A stretch of DNA of 64,000 nt from Microgenomates group bacterium. GTDB taxonomy: Bacteria; Patescibacteriota; Microgenomatia; PFEM01; JBNASD01. Each line of letters begins with the position of its first letter. Within the stretch, counting starts at the first letter, position 1. Positions 3,589-56,331 of this stretch are shown here, piece by piece. The position numbers and the translations under genes were made by a program. The stretch spans positions 100,733 through 164,732 of the forward strand of contig JBNASD010000001.1 in assembly GCA_049720225.1 (NCBI GenBank), given 5' to 3'. The notes below the pieces were generated by a model. That model saw nothing but the letters and a program-made list of their open reading frames with translations. It searched no databases and was not told where the DNA came from.

Positions 3589-3664
3589 TGGGTGGCTGAG
3601 CGGATTCGAACCGCCAACATCCTGCTCCACAGGCAGGCGCTCTAACCGTTGAGCTACAGCCACC
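3589..3664 (-). tRNA. tRNA-His (anticodon GTG). Carries the G-1:C73 feature, and CCA is encoded.
   Basis: The reverse complement folds as a cloverleaf with a GTTCGAATC T-loop and anticodon loop CUGUGGA. An extra 5' G pairs with discriminator C. Confidence 0.85.
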
Positions 3665-3665
3665 G

Positions 3666-3741
3666 TGGCGCCCCTGGAGGGATTTGAACCCCCAACCTGG
3701 TGCTTAGAACGCACTCGCTCTATCCGTTGAGCTACAGGGGC
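3666..3741 (-). tRNA. tRNA-Arg (anticodon TCT)
   Basis: The reverse complement folds as a cloverleaf with anticodon loop GUUCUAA, T-loop TTCAAAT, and CCA encoded. Confidence 0.75.
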
Positions 3742-3818
<77 letters not shown>

Positions 3819-5423: not shown

Positions 5424-5429
5424 TTTTAG

Positions 5430-5503
5430 TCGGGGATGCCAGACTCGAACTGGCGACCTCACGGTCCCAAACCGTGCGCTCTAAACCAACTGAGCTAATC
5501 CCC
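5430..5503 (-). tRNA. tRNA-Pro (anticodon TGG)
   Basis: The reverse complement reads CGGGGAT...anticodon loop UUUGGGA...GTTCGAGTC T-loop. Confidence 0.8.
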
Positions 5504-5507
5504 GCTG

Positions 5508-5592
5508 TGCCGAGGGCGGGACTCGAACCCGCACGCCTTTTGAGGGCAACGGATTTTAAGTCCGTCCTGTCTACCAATTCCAGCACCTCGGC
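5508..5592 (-). tRNA. tRNA-Leu (anticodon TAA), type II with a long variable arm
   Basis: The reverse complement reads GCCGAGG...anticodon loop CUUAAAA...long variable arm...GGTTCGAGTCC. Confidence 0.8.
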
Positions 5593-8118: not shown

Positions 8119-8209
8119 AAATAATAAAAAAAAGAAAAAATAAATAATTTTTTCACAATTTTATTTTGATATAATTTTTGTTCTTATGTCAAGTAGGAGA
8201 AAGAGTTTG

Positions 8210-8280
8210 CTGCGAGGCCTGGATTCGAACCAGGATTGACGGCTCCAAAGGCCGCTGTCCTACCGTTAGACGACCTCGCA
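8210..8280 (-). tRNA. tRNA-Gln (anticodon TTG)
   Basis: The reverse complement reads TGCGAGG...anticodon loop CUUUGGA...GGTTCGAATCC. Confidence 0.75.
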
Positions 8281-8286
8281 AAAGTG

Positions 8287-8358
8287 AGCGAGGGACGGGA
8301 CTTGAACCCGCGACCTTCTCCTTGGCAAGGAGACGTTCTGCCTCTGAACTACCCTCGC
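8287..8358 (-). tRNA. tRNA-Gly (anticodon GCC)
   Basis: The reverse complement reads GCGAGGG...anticodon loop UUGCCAA...GGTTCAAGTCC. Confidence 0.8.
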
Positions 8359-8363
8359 TTCGG

Positions 8364-8436
8364 TGCCGAGGGGCGGAGTCGAACCGCCATCTCATGTTTT
8401 TCAGACACGCGCCGTGACCACCTTGGCTACCTCGGC
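8364..8436 (-). tRNA. tRNA-Phe (anticodon GAA)
   Basis: The reverse complement reads GCCGAGG...anticodon loop CUGAAAA...GGTTCGACTCC. Confidence 0.75.
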
Positions 8437-8440
8437 CTAG

Positions 8441-8515
8441 TGGACGGAAGAGGATTCGAACCTCTGACCTCCTCTGTGTAAGAGAGGCGCTCTAGACCAG
8501 CTGAGCTATCCGTCC
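8441..8515 (-). tRNA. tRNA-Val (anticodon TAC)
   Basis: The reverse complement reads GGACGGA...anticodon loop CUUACAC...GGTTCGAATCC. Confidence 0.8.
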
Positions 8516-8521
8516 TTAAAG

Positions 8522-8606
8522 TGCCGCGGGAGGGACTCGAACCCTCACGCCCAATTGTGGGCATAGCTCCTCAAGCTATCGCGTATGCCAATTCCGCCAC
8601 CGCGGC
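8522..8606 (-). tRNA. tRNA-Leu (anticodon GAG), type II
   Basis: The reverse complement reads GCCGCGG...anticodon loop UUGAGGA...long variable arm...GGTTCGAGTCC. Confidence 0.75.
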
Positions 8607-8613
8607 GCCTCGG

Positions 8614-8696
8614 TGGACGGAGAGGGATTCGAACCCTCACAGCCTAAGGCTACAGGCTCCTGAAGCCTGCGCGTCTACCAACTCCGCCATCCGTCC
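8614..8696 (-). tRNA. tRNA-Leu (anticodon CAG), type II
   Basis: The reverse complement reads GGACGGA...anticodon loop UUCAGGA...long variable arm...GGTTCGAATCC. Confidence 0.75.
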
Positions 8697-23170: not shown

Positions 23171-23224
23171 GGGTCCGTATCCGCCAGCCGGCGGACAACT
23201 GGCGAACTTTTAAGCAGTTGTTAT
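23171..23224 (+). pseudogene. tRNA-Lys-derived fragment, 5' acceptor 9 nt plus anticodon-loop/3'-stem 14 nt with a GC-rich palindromic insert
   Basis: gggtccgta...cttttaagcagttg is identical to segments of the adjacent intact tRNA-Lys. It lacks the D- and T-arms. Confidence 0.5.
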
Positions 23225-23297
23225 GGGTCCGTAGCTCAGAGGTAGAGCAGCTGCCTTTTAAGCAGTTGGTCGAGCGTTCGATTCGCTCCGGACCCAC
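23225..23297 (+). tRNA. tRNA-Lys (anticodon TTT)
   Basis: GGGTCCGTAGCTCAGAGGTAGAGC...anticodon loop CUUUUAA...GTTCGATTC...CGGACCCA. Confidence 0.85.
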
Positions 23298-23318
23298 CCT
23301 ACCCTAGATCCACCTTTC

Positions 23319-23392
23319 GGCCCCGTCGTCTAGCGGCCTAGGACGTCAGCTTTTCAGGCTGAAGGTCGGGGGTTCGAATCCCCCCGGGGTCA
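23319..23392 (+). tRNA. tRNA-Glu (anticodon TTC)
   Basis: GGCCCCGTCGTCTAGCGGCCTAGGACG...anticodon loop UUUUCAG...GGTTCGAATCC...CGGGGTCA. Confidence 0.85.
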
Positions 23393-23449
23393 CTTTTTGA
23401 AAGCGGTGTCTTCTTAACAATCGGTTCCAAACTTTAAAGGAGGTGGCTT

Positions 23450-41835: not shown

Positions 41836-41912
41836 GGGGTTGTAGCTCAACTGGTCAGAGCATCCGCCTGTCACGCGGAAGGTTGCGGGTTCGAGCCCCG
41901 TCAACCCCGCCA
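41836..41912 (+). tRNA. tRNA-Asp (anticodon GTC), CCA encoded
   Basis: GGGGTTGTAGCTCAACTGG...anticodon loop CUGUCAC...GGTTCGAGCCC...CAACCCCGCCA. Confidence 0.85.
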
Positions 41913-41972
41913 GATTCTGCCCTCCCCCCAAAGGGGATTCTGCCCAGAAAGGAGGATTCCAATCGCTAAAAA

Positions 41973-42539
41973 GTGGAAAAATTAAAAAAGTTCCTTAAAA
42001 AAATAAAAGACAATGAATCTTTAATTAGTCTGGTTTTAGGAATTTTGGTCGTTTTGGTCGCCGGTGCCTTGGTGATTAACTATTTTCGCAACCGACCAAA
42101 GACTTCTTTGGTAGAAGAAGAAACTGTAAAACAAGAAACAACAACAGAAACTCAACAAGAAACCCAAAAATTGCCTACCTTATATACCGTTAAAAAGGGA
42201 GATAATCTTTGGAAAATTGCTGAAGAAATTTATGGTTCAGGATACAACTGGGTGGATTTAGCCAAAGAGAATAATTTAAAAAATCCCAATATTTTATTAA
42301 TTGGTCAAGAATTAAAGGTACCGCCGGTAGAACCAAAAACCATTACTAAGAAACCAGTAGCCAGCGTTGGTAGTCCAATTGAGGGAGATACCTATACCGT
42401 CGTTAAGGGTGATCATCTTTGGGGTATTGCTTTACGGGCTTATGGCGATGGTTACCAATGGGTGAAAATCGCTCGGGAAAATAAATTGGCTAATCCTAAT
42501 TTAATTCATCCGGGGAATGTTTTAAAAATCCCCCGCTAA
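41973..42539 (+). CDS. LysM-domain protein (two LysM repeats) with an N-terminal TM anchor
   Basis: Two 'YTV.KGD.LW.IA...Y..G..W..I...N.L.NPN.I..G..L.IP' LysM modules. Confidence 0.8.
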   Translation: MEKLKKFLKKIKDNESLISLVLGILVVLVAGALVINYFRNRPKTSLVEEETVKQETTTETQQETQKLPTLYTVKKGDNLWKIAEEIYGSGYNWVDLAKENNLKNPNILLIGQELKVPPVEPKTITKKPVASVGSPIEGDTYTVVKGDHLWGIALRAYGDGYQWVKIARENKLANPNLIHPGNVLKIPR

Positions 42540-42576
42540 ATAAATGTTATAATTTTTATAATATTTATTTCTTAAC

Positions 42577-42647
42577 GCGGGATTAGTTGAGCGGTTCAAC
42601 GCCACCTTCCCAAGGTGGAAAGACGGGTTCGACTCCCGTATCCCGCT
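42577..42647 (+). tRNA. tRNA-Gly (anticodon CCC)
   Basis: GCGGGATTAGTTGAGCGG...anticodon loop UUCCCAA...GGTTCGACTCC...ATCCCGCT. Confidence 0.8.
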
Positions 42648-42669
42648 CTCTTTTTTGATAAAGAAAAAA

Positions 42670-44064
42670 ATGGGTTTTAAAAAATCAATAATCTTTTTTG
42701 TTTTTTTTCTCCTCTTCAGTTTTTTTACTCCGTCAGTAAAAGCCAACGAAGAAATTAATAAATTTGGCATTCATATTTTAGAACCAACTGATATTCCTTT
42801 AGCCGCCCAACTAGTAAATTCTTCTGGTGGTGATTGGGGGTGGGTAACTATCGTGATTCGCGATAATGATTTAAATTTTCAAAAATGGCAGCAATTTATG
42901 AATCTTTGTCGAGAAAACCACCTTATTCCTTTAGTTCGCTTGGCTACTCATCCGGAAAATGATATTTGGGTAAAACCTAAACTTTCTGATAGCCAAAAAT
43001 GGGTAGAATTTCTTAATCAGCTTAATTGGCCAGTAAAAGACCGTTATTTAATTATTTTTAATGAGCCAAATCATGCCAAAGAATGGGGAGGGGAAATTAA
43101 TCCTCAAGAATATGCTCAAATATTAGCGACCTTTGCCTCCGAATTTAAAAAAACTAATCCTAATTTTCAAATTCTTAATGCCGGTTTTGATTTAGCCGCC
43201 CCTAATTCTTCAAAAACAATGGATGTTTTCTTATTTTGGCAAAAAATGACTCAAGCGGTGCCAGGAATTTTTAATCTTTTAGATGGTTGGGCCTCTCATT
43301 CTTATCCCAATCATGGATTTAAAGGAAAACCAACTGACGTGGGAAAAGCTACTATCAGGGGTTATCAGTGGGAAATAAAAATGCTTAAAAAATATTTTGA
43401 ACTTAAAAAGGATTTGCCCGTTTTTATTACCGAAACTGGCTGGCCAAAAAAAAGTAAACAAAATTCTCTCTTTTATCCTGAAAAAACAACCGCCGAATAT
43501 TTAAAAACCGCCTTTCTTGACCTTTGGTTAAAAGATAAATCAATTAAAGCAATTACCCCTTTTGTTTTAAACTATCCCCAACCCCCTTTTGAAGAATTTT
43601 CTTGGATAGACGCTCAAGGGAATTTTTCTTATCAATACGAAGTAATAAAAAATCTTCCTAAAAAAAATTGGTGGCCCCCTCAGGAAGAAAAATACCAAAT
43701 AATTAAAATCTTAACCCCTCCTTTTATGCTTACCAAAAGCAAATTTCAGGGAAAAGCAATAATTAAAAATGTTGGTCAATCAATTTTAGGAGAAAAAGAA
43801 GAGTTTATTATTCCCTCAAAATCAACTAATTCTTCTTTAGTTTATCTTTCCCCTCTAATTCTTAAAGAAAAATTGAAACCTTTTGAAGAAGGAACATTAG
43901 AATTTTTGTTAATAACTTCTACTTCTTCTGGAGAATTTAATTTAGGGTGGGAAAATGGCTTGAGTTTTCAGTTGCGCGTTTTTCAGCCGAGTGTAATTAA
44001 AAAAATCGAATATTCTTTTTGGGAAAAAATCCTTTTGAAAATTAAGGAAATTTTTAACTTTTAG
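42670..44064 (+). CDS. Secreted clan GH-A (GH5-like) glycoside hydrolase
   Basis: Has a signal peptide. The acid/base 'IIFNEPNH' (NEP) and nucleophile 'FITETGWP' (TE.G) motifs are spaced as in a (beta/alpha)8 barrel. Confidence 0.55.
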   Translation: MGFKKSIIFFVFFLLFSFFTPSVKANEEINKFGIHILEPTDIPLAAQLVNSSGGDWGWVTIVIRDNDLNFQKWQQFMNLCRENHLIPLVRLATHPENDIWVKPKLSDSQKWVEFLNQLNWPVKDRYLIIFNEPNHAKEWGGEINPQEYAQILATFASEFKKTNPNFQILNAGFDLAAPNSSKTMDVFLFWQKMTQAVPGIFNLLDGWASHSYPNHGFKGKPTDVGKATIRGYQWEIKMLKKYFELKKDLPVFITETGWPKKSKQNSLFYPEKTTAEYLKTAFLDLWLKDKSIKAITPFVLNYPQPPFEEFSWIDAQGNFSYQYEVIKNLPKKNWWPPQEEKYQIIKILTPPFMLTKSKFQGKAIIKNVGQSILGEKEEFIIPSKSTNSSLVYLSPLILKEKLKPFEEGTLEFLLITSTSSGEFNLGWENGLSFQLRVFQPSVIKKIEYSFWEKILLKIKEIFNF

Positions 44065-44092
44065 GTTAATTTTGCTAAAATTAAAAAGATTG

Positions 44093-44164
44093 GCTGGCGT
44101 AGCTCAGAGGCAGAGCAACGGTTTCGTAAACCGTCGGTCGTGGGTTCGAGTCCCACCGCCAGCT
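44093..44164 (+). tRNA. tRNA-Thr (anticodon CGT)
   Basis: GCTGGCGTAGCTCAGAGGCAGAGC...anticodon loop UUCGUAA...GGTTCGAGTCC...CGCCAGCT. Confidence 0.8.
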
Positions 44165-44173
44165 CTTATTCAA

Positions 44174-48830: not shown

Positions 48831-49097
48831 TTACCTATTTTTGGCTCTTATTCCTCCTCGATACAAACAGGAATGAGTATCGGCAATTGCTTCTCCAGGC
48901 GGTTTTCCTTTAGAAAAACAGGTTCGACATTTTTGAGCTAATGCTTCGATTACCTTCCCTTCATCATCATGGTGTTGTCCTCTTTGTTTAAGACTACTCA
49001 ATTGAGCTTGATTATCTGGAGTATATCCCATCCGACAATTAAGACAATTTAAATCAAGTTGTTGGGCAAAATCATAATCTGGTTTTATTTCTACCAT
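48831..49097 (-). CDS. Small zinc-ribbon protein (CxxC...CxxC), GC-rich, last gene of the mod-old-res operon
   Basis: Contains 'CLNC' and 'CRTC' Cys pairs. It lies 16 nt downstream of the res stop on the same strand. Confidence 0.45.
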   Translation of the reverse strand: MVEIKPDYDFAQQLDLNCLNCRMGYTPDNQAQLSSLKQRGQHHDDEGKVIEALAQKCRTCFSKGKPPGEAIADTHSCLYRGGIRAKNR

Positions 49098-49113
49098 TTT
49101 TTTAATATCTTCT

Positions 49114-52068
49114 TTAAATTACTTCTAAAATTTGGGATATATTATCAAGCCAATATTCTTTGTATTGGTCTATCGCATAAGCTTTATCGTCCGGTTTACA
49201 AAACAAAAGGACTTTAATATTGAAACCATTATGGGAAAATAATTTGTTTTTAAATATTTGGGCAAACCCATCTATTTTTCGATATGCTTCTGTATGTTCG
49301 GTACCTTTAGGGTCAACAAACACAATATAATAATTTTTATTGCTTTTTTCCTTTAACCAAAATATAAAGTCTGGTTTAAAATGCTCTATTTTTTCGGTTT
49401 TTGGATTATACCAAGGAATATAAATTTCGTCGGTAGTTTCGTCTATTTTAGAAAACATCCACCACTCAAATTTTTTATCAAATAAGTTGCCATCTTGGGC
49501 TAAATACTCATCTAACTCTTTAATAAATTTAATTTCACTTTCCTCAATAATAATATGATTTAAATAATCAATTTTTTGTCTTGGTTCGGACAAAATAACA
49601 GGATAATAGTAGTGATTAGGAACATATTTTATTTTTATTCCATTAAGAGGTTGGGAAAATAAATCTATATCTTGTCTTCCTTTTTTAAATAGTTCCAGTT
49701 GTAATTTTTTAGTTTCGTTTTCCTCCTCTTTAATTTTTTTGACCTGTTCAATCTTTTTTAAAAATTCCTCTAATTTTTCAGTTTTGGCAAATTTAATTTT
49801 CTCAAAGTGAACTATAAATTTTCCTTTTTCTACTTTTTCAAAATCTTTAAATTCTTCAGGAATTAAAGAAAAGTGGCTAATAATTCGAGAAAAAATAAGC
49901 TGTGGTTTTTTAATTGATTTTTCTTTTTCAAATTTATAGTAATTTAATGGTTTTTTAAAACTTTTTTTAATTGTATTTAATATTTTAGGTTCTGTTTCAT
50001 AGTTTATTAAAAAAATCCTCTCGTCTCCTAAATACTCAAAATATTTCTTAATTAAATTAAAATCTTCTTCACTTAAGATATAACTTTTAGGTTCTTTTAT
50101 TTCTGCTAAAGTATAATCCGCCGGTTTATAAACCGGCACAAAAAGGGGTAGTTTTTCTGCTTTTTGATTAATAATAAAATATCCTTTAAGGAGATAACCT
50201 TCCTCTTTTCTTGCCTCTTCAAAAGTTTTAATCGTTTCTTCTAAAGCATACGGATTAGTACCAAAAATAAATAGAGTTTCTAACTGAAAGCCAAAATCTT
50301 TAATTTTTTCAAAAACATTTCTTTTAATTTTATTTGCCTGATAAAGATTTTCTAATCTTTTTCTTTCGTTTTTTAAAGGCTCTATTCTTACTCCTCTTCC
50401 TGCTGATTGTAAAACAAATTTTTTTGCTTGTGGCCCTGTCCCAATATTAATGTACAAAATAATATTTGGCCTATTAGAATCCCAACCTTCATAAAAAGTT
50501 CTTGAACCCATCAGGATATTATGATCTGATTCGGGTTGATTAATTTTTTTAAAAGCGCTTTCATTGTCAAAACTTTCAATAATCTCATATCCTTCAAAAT
50601 AATCTTTAAGCCAACCTGAAATATCACCAATTTTAATTAAAGCAAACGGCCTTTCAGAAGTTTTTAACCTAAAAACCATTTCCTGGCGATTTCCGGGGAT
50701 AGTTAAAACTTCAATCGTTCCAAAGCTTTTTGAATTATAAATATCTTCTAAAATGTCTTGATAATTAATCTTTTCTATGAGGTTTTTATCAATCTTAATT
50801 TCTTCTCCTTGAGGAAAAATAACTTTGGAATCTAAAGAAAAAGTATTAATTAATTCTTCTTTTGCGGATTTAAAGACATTTTCTTTTATTTTTCCCTGGC
50901 CAATTTTTTCAATTTGCCTAAAAAACAATTTCAAATCCGCATCTTCAATATTTACCGAATTTACCAAAGTTAAAAGCAAAGGATAATGGTAAAATTTTTT
51001 ATCTATTTTTTTAATTTTATTAGCAAATTTCTTTAAATAACTCAAAAGAATCAATGACTTTAAAACAATTTTTTGTTTTTCGTTTTCGGTAAAATCTGTT
51101 TTATCTTTAAAAGCTTTTATTTCTTCTTGTGAAAGATAAATTCTTTTTCCGTAGCCGTTTTCAATAAAAACTGGCAAATTATAGTTAAAAACTGTTGTTA
51201 AAAAATCCCTTGGGTCAACAAAGGTCGCAGAAAAGTTAAATAAAAAGCCGTTACGAGACATTATTGAATAAATTATCTGTCTCACTGAATCATCCTTTTC
51301 TCCTTTGTGTGCTTCATCAAGAAGAATATACCATCTACCATTATTATCGTAATTTCTAAAATCTAATCTTTTTTCTTTTTGTTCAGTCCAAAGATTATCG
51401 GAGCGGTAATAAAAAATGGTTATTTCTCTATCTTTAAATAAAGAATAACTTCCTCTTTTTACTTCGTCCCATTCTTTTAAGCTTTTAAGATTAATATAAA
51501 AATCACTTCGAGAAGCATTTATTTCTTTGATATATTCTTTAAACTGGTCAATTAAGCCATCTCGATAAGTCAAAAACAAAATATCGCTTTCGGGAATTTC
51601 TTTATTTTTTATTAAAGAATTTAAAATCTCAATGAGTTTCACAATCACTAAAGTTTTTCCAGAACCGGTTGCCATCCAAAAATTCATTCTGTTAACAAAA
51701 TTTTCAAAACTAACTTTATTATCAATTAGCGGATAATATTCTTCTAAAAGTTTTGCTGTTTTTTTACCCTCTTTTTTAGTTAAATCATAATCAGCGCCTT
51801 TTTCTGGATAATTAGAATCAGCTTTATAAAAATTAAAAAGATGCCTTTTTCTTTCTAAATTTACTTCTAATTTTTCTTTTTCCTGATAATCAAACAATTC
51901 CTGATAATATCGCCACAAAATTTTTAAAGCATTTTTTAAAGCCTCTTGTTGAAAATCATAAAGAGATTTTTCCTTTGAAAAACCTTTCAAATCAAAACTC
52001 TGCCAAGCAGTTGGTAAATCTTCAAATCTAATTTCTTTTGCTATATTTTGAAGAATTAGTTTGGACAT
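49114..52068 (-). CDS. res: Type III restriction enzyme Res-like subunit: SF2 helicase/translocase with a C-terminal PD-(D/E)xK nuclease
   Basis: Has Walker A 'MATGSGKTLV', DEAH 'LLDEAHKG', motif VI 'QSAGRGVRI', and C-terminal 'KPDFIFW...VFVDPKG' (PD...DxK). Confidence 0.7.
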   Translation of the reverse strand: MSKLILQNIAKEIRFEDLPTAWQSFDLKGFSKEKSLYDFQQEALKNALKILWRYYQELFDYQEKEKLEVNLERKRHLFNFYKADSNYPEKGADYDLTKKEGKKTAKLLEEYYPLIDNKVSFENFVNRMNFWMATGSGKTLVIVKLIEILNSLIKNKEIPESDILFLTYRDGLIDQFKEYIKEINASRSDFYINLKSLKEWDEVKRGSYSLFKDREITIFYYRSDNLWTEQKEKRLDFRNYDNNGRWYILLDEAHKGEKDDSVRQIIYSIMSRNGFLFNFSATFVDPRDFLTTVFNYNLPVFIENGYGKRIYLSQEEIKAFKDKTDFTENEKQKIVLKSLILLSYLKKFANKIKKIDKKFYHYPLLLTLVNSVNIEDADLKLFFRQIEKIGQGKIKENVFKSAKEELINTFSLDSKVIFPQGEEIKIDKNLIEKINYQDILEDIYNSKSFGTIEVLTIPGNRQEMVFRLKTSERPFALIKIGDISGWLKDYFEGYEIIESFDNESAFKKINQPESDHNILMGSRTFYEGWDSNRPNIILYINIGTGPQAKKFVLQSAGRGVRIEPLKNERKRLENLYQANKIKRNVFEKIKDFGFQLETLFIFGTNPYALEETIKTFEEARKEEGYLLKGYFIINQKAEKLPLFVPVYKPADYTLAEIKEPKSYILSEEDFNLIKKYFEYLGDERIFLINYETEPKILNTIKKSFKKPLNYYKFEKEKSIKKPQLIFSRIISHFSLIPEEFKDFEKVEKGKFIVHFEKIKFAKTEKLEEFLKKIEQVKKIKEEENETKKLQLELFKKGRQDIDLFSQPLNGIKIKYVPNHYYYPVILSEPRQKIDYLNHIIIEESEIKFIKELDEYLAQDGNLFDKKFEWWMFSKIDETTDEIYIPWYNPKTEKIEHFKPDFIFWLKEKSNKNYYIVFVDPKGTEHTEAYRKIDGFAQIFKNKLFSHNGFNIKVLLFCKPDDKAYAIDQYKEYWLDNISQILEVI

Positions 52069-52099
52069 AACAAGTTATAATCCGCTTTTTGTTATTTAC

Positions 52100-53786
52100 T
52101 TAACTCAAATGAAAATAACTTCTTATTTTATTAATACAGTCTATAATTTGCTGAGGTATTTCTTTTTCTAGTAAAGTATTTATCTTTTCTAAAATTTCAT
52201 TTAATCTTTCAGATCCGATCAATTTTTCAAAAGATGTTTCAAACATAAATCTTTGATTTTCACTGCTAAATTCTTTTATCATCTCATCTTTACCTTCATC
52301 TTCTTCATCTTTATCATAGTCATATACTACAAAAAAATCTATTCCATAAATAAGACATATCATCTGATAATAAGGAATGTTCGATTTCCCTCTTGCATAA
52401 ATAATTGTTACTCCATCAAGAGATAAATTTAGTTTTTTTGCTATTTCAATTAAACCGTATTTGTCGTTTGGTCCTTCTAATATAATACATTTATCATCAA
52501 AAAGTATTTGATTATTGTCTCTATAAAAAATTGTTTTATCTTGCTGGTATCTTTTAATTTCATCTAAATGCGCTTCTAAACTTTGTTTTTCTTTGCTAGT
52601 AGATGATTTTTTAAACTGTTTGGATAAATCTTCTGGTCTGGGATAAATATTCTCATCAGTTAATCTTTTAATAGATTTCCAATTACTTAAATCAATAAAA
52701 ATATCTGAATGAGTACTTAAGATATGCTGATATTGAGAAGATTTAATTTCATTAAATAATTTATATTGTAATTGAGGATGCAAATGTAATTCTGGATCGT
52801 CAATTAAAAAAATAATTTCTTCTTTTGATAACTCACTTGTCAATTTAAGCAAAAAGTAGGCAATCACCATCAATTCACCTGAGGCCATTCTTGATAAAGT
52901 AATAATTTTATCGCCTTCTCTTAAAGAAAAGAAGGCGTCATCAAAAGGTTGTCGTAGATTAAAAAGAGATATTTCAAAATTGGTAAATTTTTCTCCAATG
53001 AAATCTTTAATTTTCTCTTTTAATGGATTTATTATCTTTGATTGTTTCGGGTCTTCAACTTTGTTAATAATAAAAGAGTAAATATCTTCCCATTTATTAA
53101 CATACTCGTTTCTTTTATTTATTTTGTAATCTTTAAAAAATCTCCAATTAAGTTCGTCTAAAATCTTTTGGAATGTCGTAAAATAGCCAGGCCTTAAGTC
53201 CTTATCTCTTTCTTTTGAAAAATAAAAAATCCTAGGAAAATTTTCTAAACTATCTTGTCCATAAACTTCAAGCAATCTTTCTTGAATTTCTTTAAACTTT
53301 TCATCCTTTTTAACCCAATACTCATAATTTCGTGTTTCAGTATTTAGTTGAACTTTAAGTGGTACATAATTCGTAGAAATTAAAGGTGGTTTTAATTCAT
53401 CATACTTTTGGTAGCATTCAGGAATAACAATATGTTTTGTAGTAAAAATTGTGGAAAATGCCTTACCTGGTGCAGATTTCTCGCGGTATTTAGCAACAAA
53501 CTTAATTTTTTTTTGATGGCAATTTTACCCAATCTGCAATTTTTAGAAAGAAGTAATCATCAAATTCAACTTCAATTTCTATCGGTTCTGTGTCAGAATT
53601 AAAGTCATCAGGTTTTATTTTGCTCTCTACAAAAGAAAAATTGGTCGCTAAATTTATCGCTTCTAAAATACTAGTTTTGCCAGTTCCATTTTTACCAACT
53701 AGTGTAGTAAAATTTTCTTCAAACTCAATGATTGTTTCGTTTTTAAACTTTCTAAAATTTTTAATTGTTAATTTTTTAATTCTCAT
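52100..53786 (-). pseudogene. OLD-family ABC-type ATPase + Toprim nuclease gene split by a +1/-1 frameshift at an A9/T9 tract (53506-53514). The N-fragment is 53502..53786, the bridge plus C-fragment 52100..53501.
   Basis: The N-fragment carries Walker A 'GKNGTGKTS'. The downstream frame is open for all 76 codons back to the homopolymer. The C-fragment carries 'SGE' signature-like, Walker B/D-loop 'LIDDPELHLHP', H-loop 'LSTHS' and Toprim 'ILEGPND...VVYDYDKD'. Confidence 0.65.
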
Positions 53787-56300
<2,514 letters not shown>

Positions 56301-56331
56301 TTATTATTTTTTTTAGAAAGGGGGTGAGAAA

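Follow-up and report, generated by a model that had tools for sequence, protein, structure and literature searches.

OLD-family nucleases are distinguished by their partner genes, which are UvrD/PcrA in Class 2, a retron reverse transcriptase (RT) in Class 3 and AriB in Class 4. Class 1 OLD proteins, such as Old of phage P2 and the OLD of Thermus scotoductus (PDB 6p74), feature an ABC ATPase (Walker A, Walker B, signature) and a Toprim domain (Glu, DxD), and their genes were reported to stand alone (Schiltz 2019). Genes coding ABC-ATPase/Toprim proteins were also described as embedded in the Hma, BREX, DISARM and Type I restriction-modification (R-M) systems, Type III systems lying outside the survey, and autonomous embedded systems are expected to occur outside their host operons too (Payne et al. 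2024). Embedded defence genes such as those coding PrrC in Type Ic R-M or the ABC-ATPase-Toprim HEC-04 in Hma are nested, in the same orientation, within a methylase/helicase system. Phase variation of Type III mod and res genes is established. The simple-sequence tracts that toggle the frame of an ORF in phasevarions and in the R-M systems of Helicobacter and Campylobacter lie in mod or res, are usually longer than the run described here, or are poly-G/C or multi-nucleotide repeats, and are length-polymorphic among strains.

Homopolymeric A/T runs have a further literature of their own. Nine A/T is the lower threshold for slippage, and ORFs disrupted on A9/T9 runs can be restored in the mRNA by transcriptional slippage (Baranov 2005, PMC1088944). 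Poly(A) frameshifts are also found in Buchnera and Blochmannia. Slippage of the RNA polymerase repairs part of the poly(A) frameshifts of AT-rich reduced genomes, with 12–50% of the transcripts corrected in AT-rich endosymbionts (Atkins 2016, PMC5009743). Poly(A) tracts vary in length at ~1000x the rate of point mutation and those near 5' ends can switch (Orsi 2010, PMC2831843). This literature is no evidence that the site analysed below is used as a switch.

In the window, which is the whole 64-kb stretch of DNA that was analysed, an OLD gene is interrupted by a +1 frameshift in a run of nine A (Table 1). When the run is read as A8, the restored protein has a Pfam AAA_15 match that crosses the junction in one stretch (residues 1–364, E 1e-34), a match to AAA_21, and the OLD-like_TOPRIM domain PF20469 near its carboxyl terminus. 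The top PADLOC matches for the ATPase are AriA, Old, GajA and PtuA, and the closest solved structure is that of T. scotoductus OLD, 6p74 (E 2e-21). The ABC ATPase motifs are kept (invariant G31 to T38, S302 G303 E304, D329/E332), while E437, G438, D489 and D491 of the Toprim domain are invariant and align with the EG and DED of 6p74. Having an amino-terminal ABC ATPase and a carboxyl-terminal Toprim with the catalytic Glu and DxD, the product is predicted to be a Class-1-like OLD nuclease, coded between mod and res. The class-defining partner genes (UvrD/PcrA, retron RT, AriB) are absent nearby, the neighbours being Mod and the ResIII helicase. It shares with the Class 1 proteins both domains and their motifs but differs from them in two ways: the present clade is found between mod and res of Type III-like operons, and the window copy is not a single ORF, since the A9 allele is frameshifted and stops after 94 aa.

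Table 1. Coordinates of the features of the Mod-OLD-Res operon and of the tRNA gene regions in the window.
Feature	Position	Strand	Remarks
Res-like SF2 helicase (ResIII)	49114..52068	-	starts 31 nt past the OLD stop
Whole OLD-family (Class-1-like) nuclease gene, predicted	52100..53786	-	561 aa with an A8 tract
OLD carboxyl-terminal part, +1 frame, restored residues 94–561	52100..53506	-	NCBI MGB9911139
OLD-type Toprim, restored residues 428–491	52312..52504	-	includes E437/G438, D489/D491
OLD amino-terminal fragment, 94 aa + TAA	53502..53786	-	NCBI MGB9911140
Two-frame open zone	53502..53524	-	23 nt, indel confined here
A9 homopolymer with +1 frameshift	53506..53514	-	orthologous site in relatives TCAAAAAAGATT (A6-G-A)
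Walker A / P-loop codons GKNGTGKT, residues 31–38	53673..53696	-	G31 N33 G34 G36 K37 T38 invariant
Type III Mod methyltransferase, 833-aa ORF	53787..56288	-	TAA abuts the OLD ATG
tRNA gene regions	3590-3818, 5429-5592, 8209-8696, 23224-23393, 41836-44165		

The run is A9 on the coding (-) strand, hence T9 on the + strand, and is the only homopolymer of at least 9 nt in the window. The coding strand reads ...TTG CCA TCA AAA AAA AAT TAA G... at the junction, where the TAA stop of the amino-terminal fragment (53502–53504) begins one base past the run. The alternative frame stays open between 53524 and its stop at 52100 and lacks ATG, GTG and TTG over 77 codons past the tract, the earliest being a TTG at 53275. 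The zone in which the two frames are both open, and inside which the indel must fall, is only 23 nt long, and alignment to the DNA of five relatives shows one gap of 1 nt, which falls within the run, and one G>A difference. The frameshift is therefore on the homopolymer itself. The sequence-only reading of this DNA had placed the frameshift exactly on a T9 run, between a 94-aa fragment with Walker A ending in LPSKKN and another frame that joins the Toprim-containing fragment; the run, the fragment, the open frame and the site of the frameshift are all borne out, with the Pfam match spanning the junction. Its proposal that a change of one base in either direction restores an ORF of ~560 aa is correct for the loss of a base and wrong for the gain. 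In simulations of tract length, one continuous ORF results from A8 (561 aa) and from A11 (562 aa), whereas A10 stops after 131 codons and A7 after 130. Repair of the frame thus needs -1 or +2, and A8 and A11 are the only ON states among lengths A7 to A11, with A7, A9 and A10 being OFF.

MGB9911140 and MGB9911139 are best annotated as one OLD gene. The latter is deposited as a CDS of 468 aa that begins at an ATT within the tract (53504–53506), which is unlikely to be a genuine start. That the two fragments form a split protein was considered and rejected, as one piece has Walker A and the other has the signature and Walker B, the carboxyl-terminal frame is start-less past the tract over the length given above, and no homologue is split at this position.

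The state of the site in other bacteria bears on its origin. A protein search yielded 319 homologues, most of those listed being single ORFs of ~540–590 aa. The 15 closest read KLPSKK(I/M)KF(V/I/T)AK(Y/H/S)R at the junction, and the A8 reading of the window, KLPSKKIKFVAKYR, is identical to that of several of the closest intact homologues. Fourteen relatives of the SKKIK clade, with 71–89% amino acid identity to the window OLD, were examined at the DNA level; they include L014, whose Mod is of the same subtype as in the window, and L013 (89%). All 14 read TCA AAA AAG ATT (A6-G-A) in TCAAAAAAGATT, and neither an A8 or A9 tract nor a frameshift is found at the site in any of them. The run thus arose in the window lineage through a synonymous AAG>AAA change and one extra A. 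With Lys codons of the window OLD gene in the proportion AAA 55 : AAG 10, AAG>AAA is expected drift. In all 13 relatives compared, whose genes mostly use AAA, Lys93 (window codon 53508–53510) is coded by AAG. Thirty Lys columns are invariant across the 14 sequences and the relatives are all-AAA in 18 of them and all-AAG in two; at Lys93 the G interrupts an otherwise A8 run. This codon pattern suggests that selection in the relatives may favour an interrupted run, the reverse of a contingency tract kept by selection. The second all-AAG column is Lys195 (GAT AAG GAC).

The same organism and closer strains were sought by a scan of genome contigs, in which the alignment query gave only relatives of at most 40% identity and the single-protein query none, and look-ups of the exact products (P0001, Mod and Res) gave no recorded contig. 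P0001, the protein-search hit at 100% identity, is the NCBI annotation of the window's own genome. The protein cluster of the window OLD, in which one NCBI assembly is represented, holds no intact 561-aa version.

The remainder of the OLD gene is well preserved. The restored protein keeps all 91 residues that do not vary among 31 intact homologues, 19 of them before the break and 72 after it; intact homologues tested in the same way deviate at 0–5 positions. The dN/dS ratio relative to L014 is 0.074 for the amino-terminal part and 0.145 for the carboxyl-terminal part, the latter part giving 0.128 relative to L012, and no second stop or frameshift occurs in the 1.7 kb of OLD gene DNA, whose GC content is 26%. 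From this lack of decay elsewhere in the gene, the break looks either very recent or not real.

The reading favoured here, to which a probability of about one half is given, is that of a real and recent +1 slippage mutation that produced a young loss-of-function allele and not a selected switch. Taking the extra A to be biologically real, the inferred order of events would start with the synonymous AAG>AAA change at Lys93, which would remove the interrupting G and create A8. A +1 replication slip would then convert A8 to A9, and translation would end after 94 aa so that the Toprim part would not be made. Since a run of nine A is unstable, the gene might be repaired by a -1 slip. The allele may also be leaky: a little full-length protein could come from mRNAs in which RNA polymerase has slipped to A8 or A11, or from tRNA-Lys slipping by +1 on AAA AAA, the rescued product reading SKKIK or SKKKIK. 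Such a rescue is possible and is proposed purely by analogy with other slippery runs. The situation resembles that of the A9/T9-disrupted ORFs (Baranov 2005) and of the poly(A) frameshifts of Buchnera and Blochmannia in the single-base frameshift, the 9-nt A run, the AT-rich small-genome bacterium and the restoration of the ORF that slippage to A8 or A11 would bring. It differs in that the frameshifted state of the window is common to no relative. Note that sixteen tRNA genes are present in the window, most of them in three tight clusters, and that the only tRNA-Lys found there is UUU, which would read both AAA and AAG.

The doubtful, if serious, alternative is that the run is really A8 and OLD is intact, the extra A being a homopolymer-length miscall in the consensus of the metagenome-assembled genome (MAG). 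No other homopolymer of the window is as long as the frameshifted one, and the longest run is where length miscalls are most likely; the A8 sequence gives the exact reading of the homologues, and one deposited assembly only carries the sequence. The invariant positions and the low dN/dS would look the same for an artefact. The quality of the assembly argues in the other direction. When one base was added to or removed from each of 573 runs (A/T of at least 6, G/C of at least 5), only the A9 run merged two ORF pieces within a gene, ten other flagged runs being located at the junctions of tightly packed neighbouring genes. The coding A8/T8 runs are in frame in 32 of 32 cases, and large housekeeping genes are intact, for example that of DnaE (1154 aa). 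The run test and the in-frame A8/T8 runs indicate an assembly without a general homopolymer problem, in which systematic error is low. Furthermore, the G>A by which the window departs from all relatives is a true substitution, and the lineage has therefore changed at this site in any case. A pseudogene and an assembly error, which the sequence-only reading had listed as alternatives to a phase-variation switch, remain the most likely explanations.

The distribution of run lengths in the window provides a view of how such sites are tolerated. A/T runs of 5, 6, 7, 8 and 9 nt number 712, 332, 136, 37 and 1, respectively, and the probability of extension by one base is 0.415, 0.344, 0.218 and 0.026 from length 5 to 9. 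About eight runs of at least 9 nt are expected at the 7-to-8 extension rate and one is observed, which points to selection against runs of this length in the window's genome. Their avoidance fits the 9-nt slippage threshold (Baranov 2005, PMC1088944).

An evolved phase-variation switch, in which the run is kept by selection and slippage flips a costly OLD nuclease ON (A8/A11) and OFF (A9/A10), is improbable. The slippery run and its repair by -1 give this reading a basis: the tract lies early in the gene (codon 92 of 561), poly(A) near 5' ends is highly mutable and can switch (Orsi 2010, PMC2831843), the gene is otherwise intact, and a change in tract length toggles the frame in simulation, as it does in the established phase variation of Type III mod and res. 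However, the tract is not present in the orthologues. Its length was compared in the 14 relatives, none of which is of the same species, and they keep the interrupting G in all cases, contrary to what an evolved switch predicts. Known tracts lie in mod or res and vary in length among strains, whereas here it is the embedded OLD gene that carries nine A, the minimum slippery length (Baranov 2005, PMC1088944), and no repeat tracts or arrays were found in mod and res of the window. In addition, length change restores the frame in one direction only, and the OLD gene of L015 was lost by an ordinary nonsense mutation. The evolved switch is consequently a possible but poorly supported reading, disfavoured by the comparative data.

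A switch that is newly arisen and already working is an equally slim prospect; OLD would then flip between A8 (ON) and A9 (OFF) at high frequency in the natural population. If this were true, weak mismatch repair, which CPR bacteria may have, could drive the flipping, and cells could shed and regain a costly nuclease of the abortive-infection type while the surrounding Type III system stays on. Programmed recoding, in which A9 is functional and RNA-polymerase slippage or a +1 ribosomal slip on AAA AAA keeps a toxic full-length OLD scarce, is very improbable: the run has the classic length for transcriptional slippage and reaches the threshold of nine A/T at the frame junction (Baranov 2005, PMC1088944; Atkins 2016, PMC5009743), A8 and A11 each give a full-length ORF and the zero-frame stop is directly past the run, but the two-frame layout, by whose conservation programmed recoding is usually judged, is shared by no homologue, the full-length ones being single ORFs of ~550–570 aa, and a Shine-Dalgarno-like stimulator is absent beside the site. 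A +1 programmed frameshift of the prfB type was rejected as a designed feature because the layout is not conserved and such a stimulator is missing.

Whether the frameshift arose by a recent slip, as preferred here, or otherwise, the OLD gene belongs to an operon whose other members can be assigned with varying confidence. Mod matches the PADLOC model MTase_III PDLC03638 over its full length (755 bits), carries an N6_N4_Mtase domain with PDB matches to 4zcf_A (EcoP15I Mod) and 6k0w, and has its DPPY motif ahead of FAGSGTT in the sequence. It is predicted to be a beta-class N6-adenine methyltransferase related to EcoP15I Mod. The start annotated by NCBI is at 56225 (812 aa) and not at the first ATG of the 833-aa ORF; the alignment to the PADLOC model begins at residue 23. 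An A8 run (T8 on the + strand) is found just upstream of mod at 56307–56314, where it overlaps a promoter-like -10 element (56330–56303, -); it is one of 37 and may mean nothing. Res (984 aa) has a ResIII domain (E 5e-16), a weak partial-length match to PADLOC REase_III (2.7e-20) and a carboxyl-terminal PD-(D/E)xK-like motif, KPDFIF...VDPKG, seen by eye only. The PDB sequence search with Res was without a match. A 54-aa ENA 'representative' of its 90% cluster (P0123, from L103 contig_149838) is an unrelated phage protein and was set aside as a clustering artefact. Membership of the operon in Hma was rejected, since in PADLOC Res matches REase_III only, Mod is best matched by MTase_III and the ATPase by AriA, Old, GajA and PtuA.

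The operon is located on the chromosome of a Microgenomates (CPR) bacterium. The neighbouring chromosomal genes (coding DnaE, CTP synthase, PPDK, iPGM and PolX) are all intact. The island at 49000–56300 has a GC content of 0.26–0.29, compared to 0.33 for the window and 0.35–0.40 for its housekeeping stretches, a difference that fits horizontal acquisition.

The gene order Mod - OLD - ResIII helicase is common to the window and to six relatives (L004, L006, L012, L014, L015 and L016). OLD is ~72–80% identical across these operons. Their Mod proteins belong to a different PADLOC subfamily and are ~30–40% identical to that of the window over the catalytic core, with the exception of L014, whose Mod subtype is that of the window, and their Res proteins are ~22–27% identical to the window Res. 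From these identities and the shared order, it seems that OLD travels as a cassette from one Type III-like operon to another, always landing between mod and res. The possibility that OLD supplies the nuclease to a nuclease-less Res was rejected because both Res types carry a carboxyl-terminal PD-(D/E)xK-like motif.

Distant members of the OLD clade are standalone (53%), beside a Type II system (40%) or after an Eco57I/MmeI-type methylase (63%). Like the embedded defence genes PrrC and HEC-04, the OLD gene is nested in the same orientation within a methylase/helicase system, and its clade is also found outside such operons, as Payne et al. expect. The host system differs, being a Type III R-M system by PADLOC models and not Hma.

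Losses in this operon family take several forms. In L015 (2771–4423 and 4426–6649) OLD has an in-frame nonsense change CAA>TAA (HPQL*YKLF), and Res is split in two with a T7 run near the break. In L021 and L022 OLD is intact and Res is reduced to a 99-aa remnant (L021 7617–7916). Piecemeal decay is thus common in the family and does not need a homopolymer.

The frameshift itself is minor: breaks of one base in a slippery run are ordinary, and both defence genes and MAG assemblies commonly have them. The Mod-OLD-Res context is worth more, because it brings Type III systems and CPR bacteria into the theme of embedded defence genes. The operons described here also form a comparison set in which the window is a natural OLD knock-out, L015 and L021 are knock-outs of other parts, and intact versions are available too.
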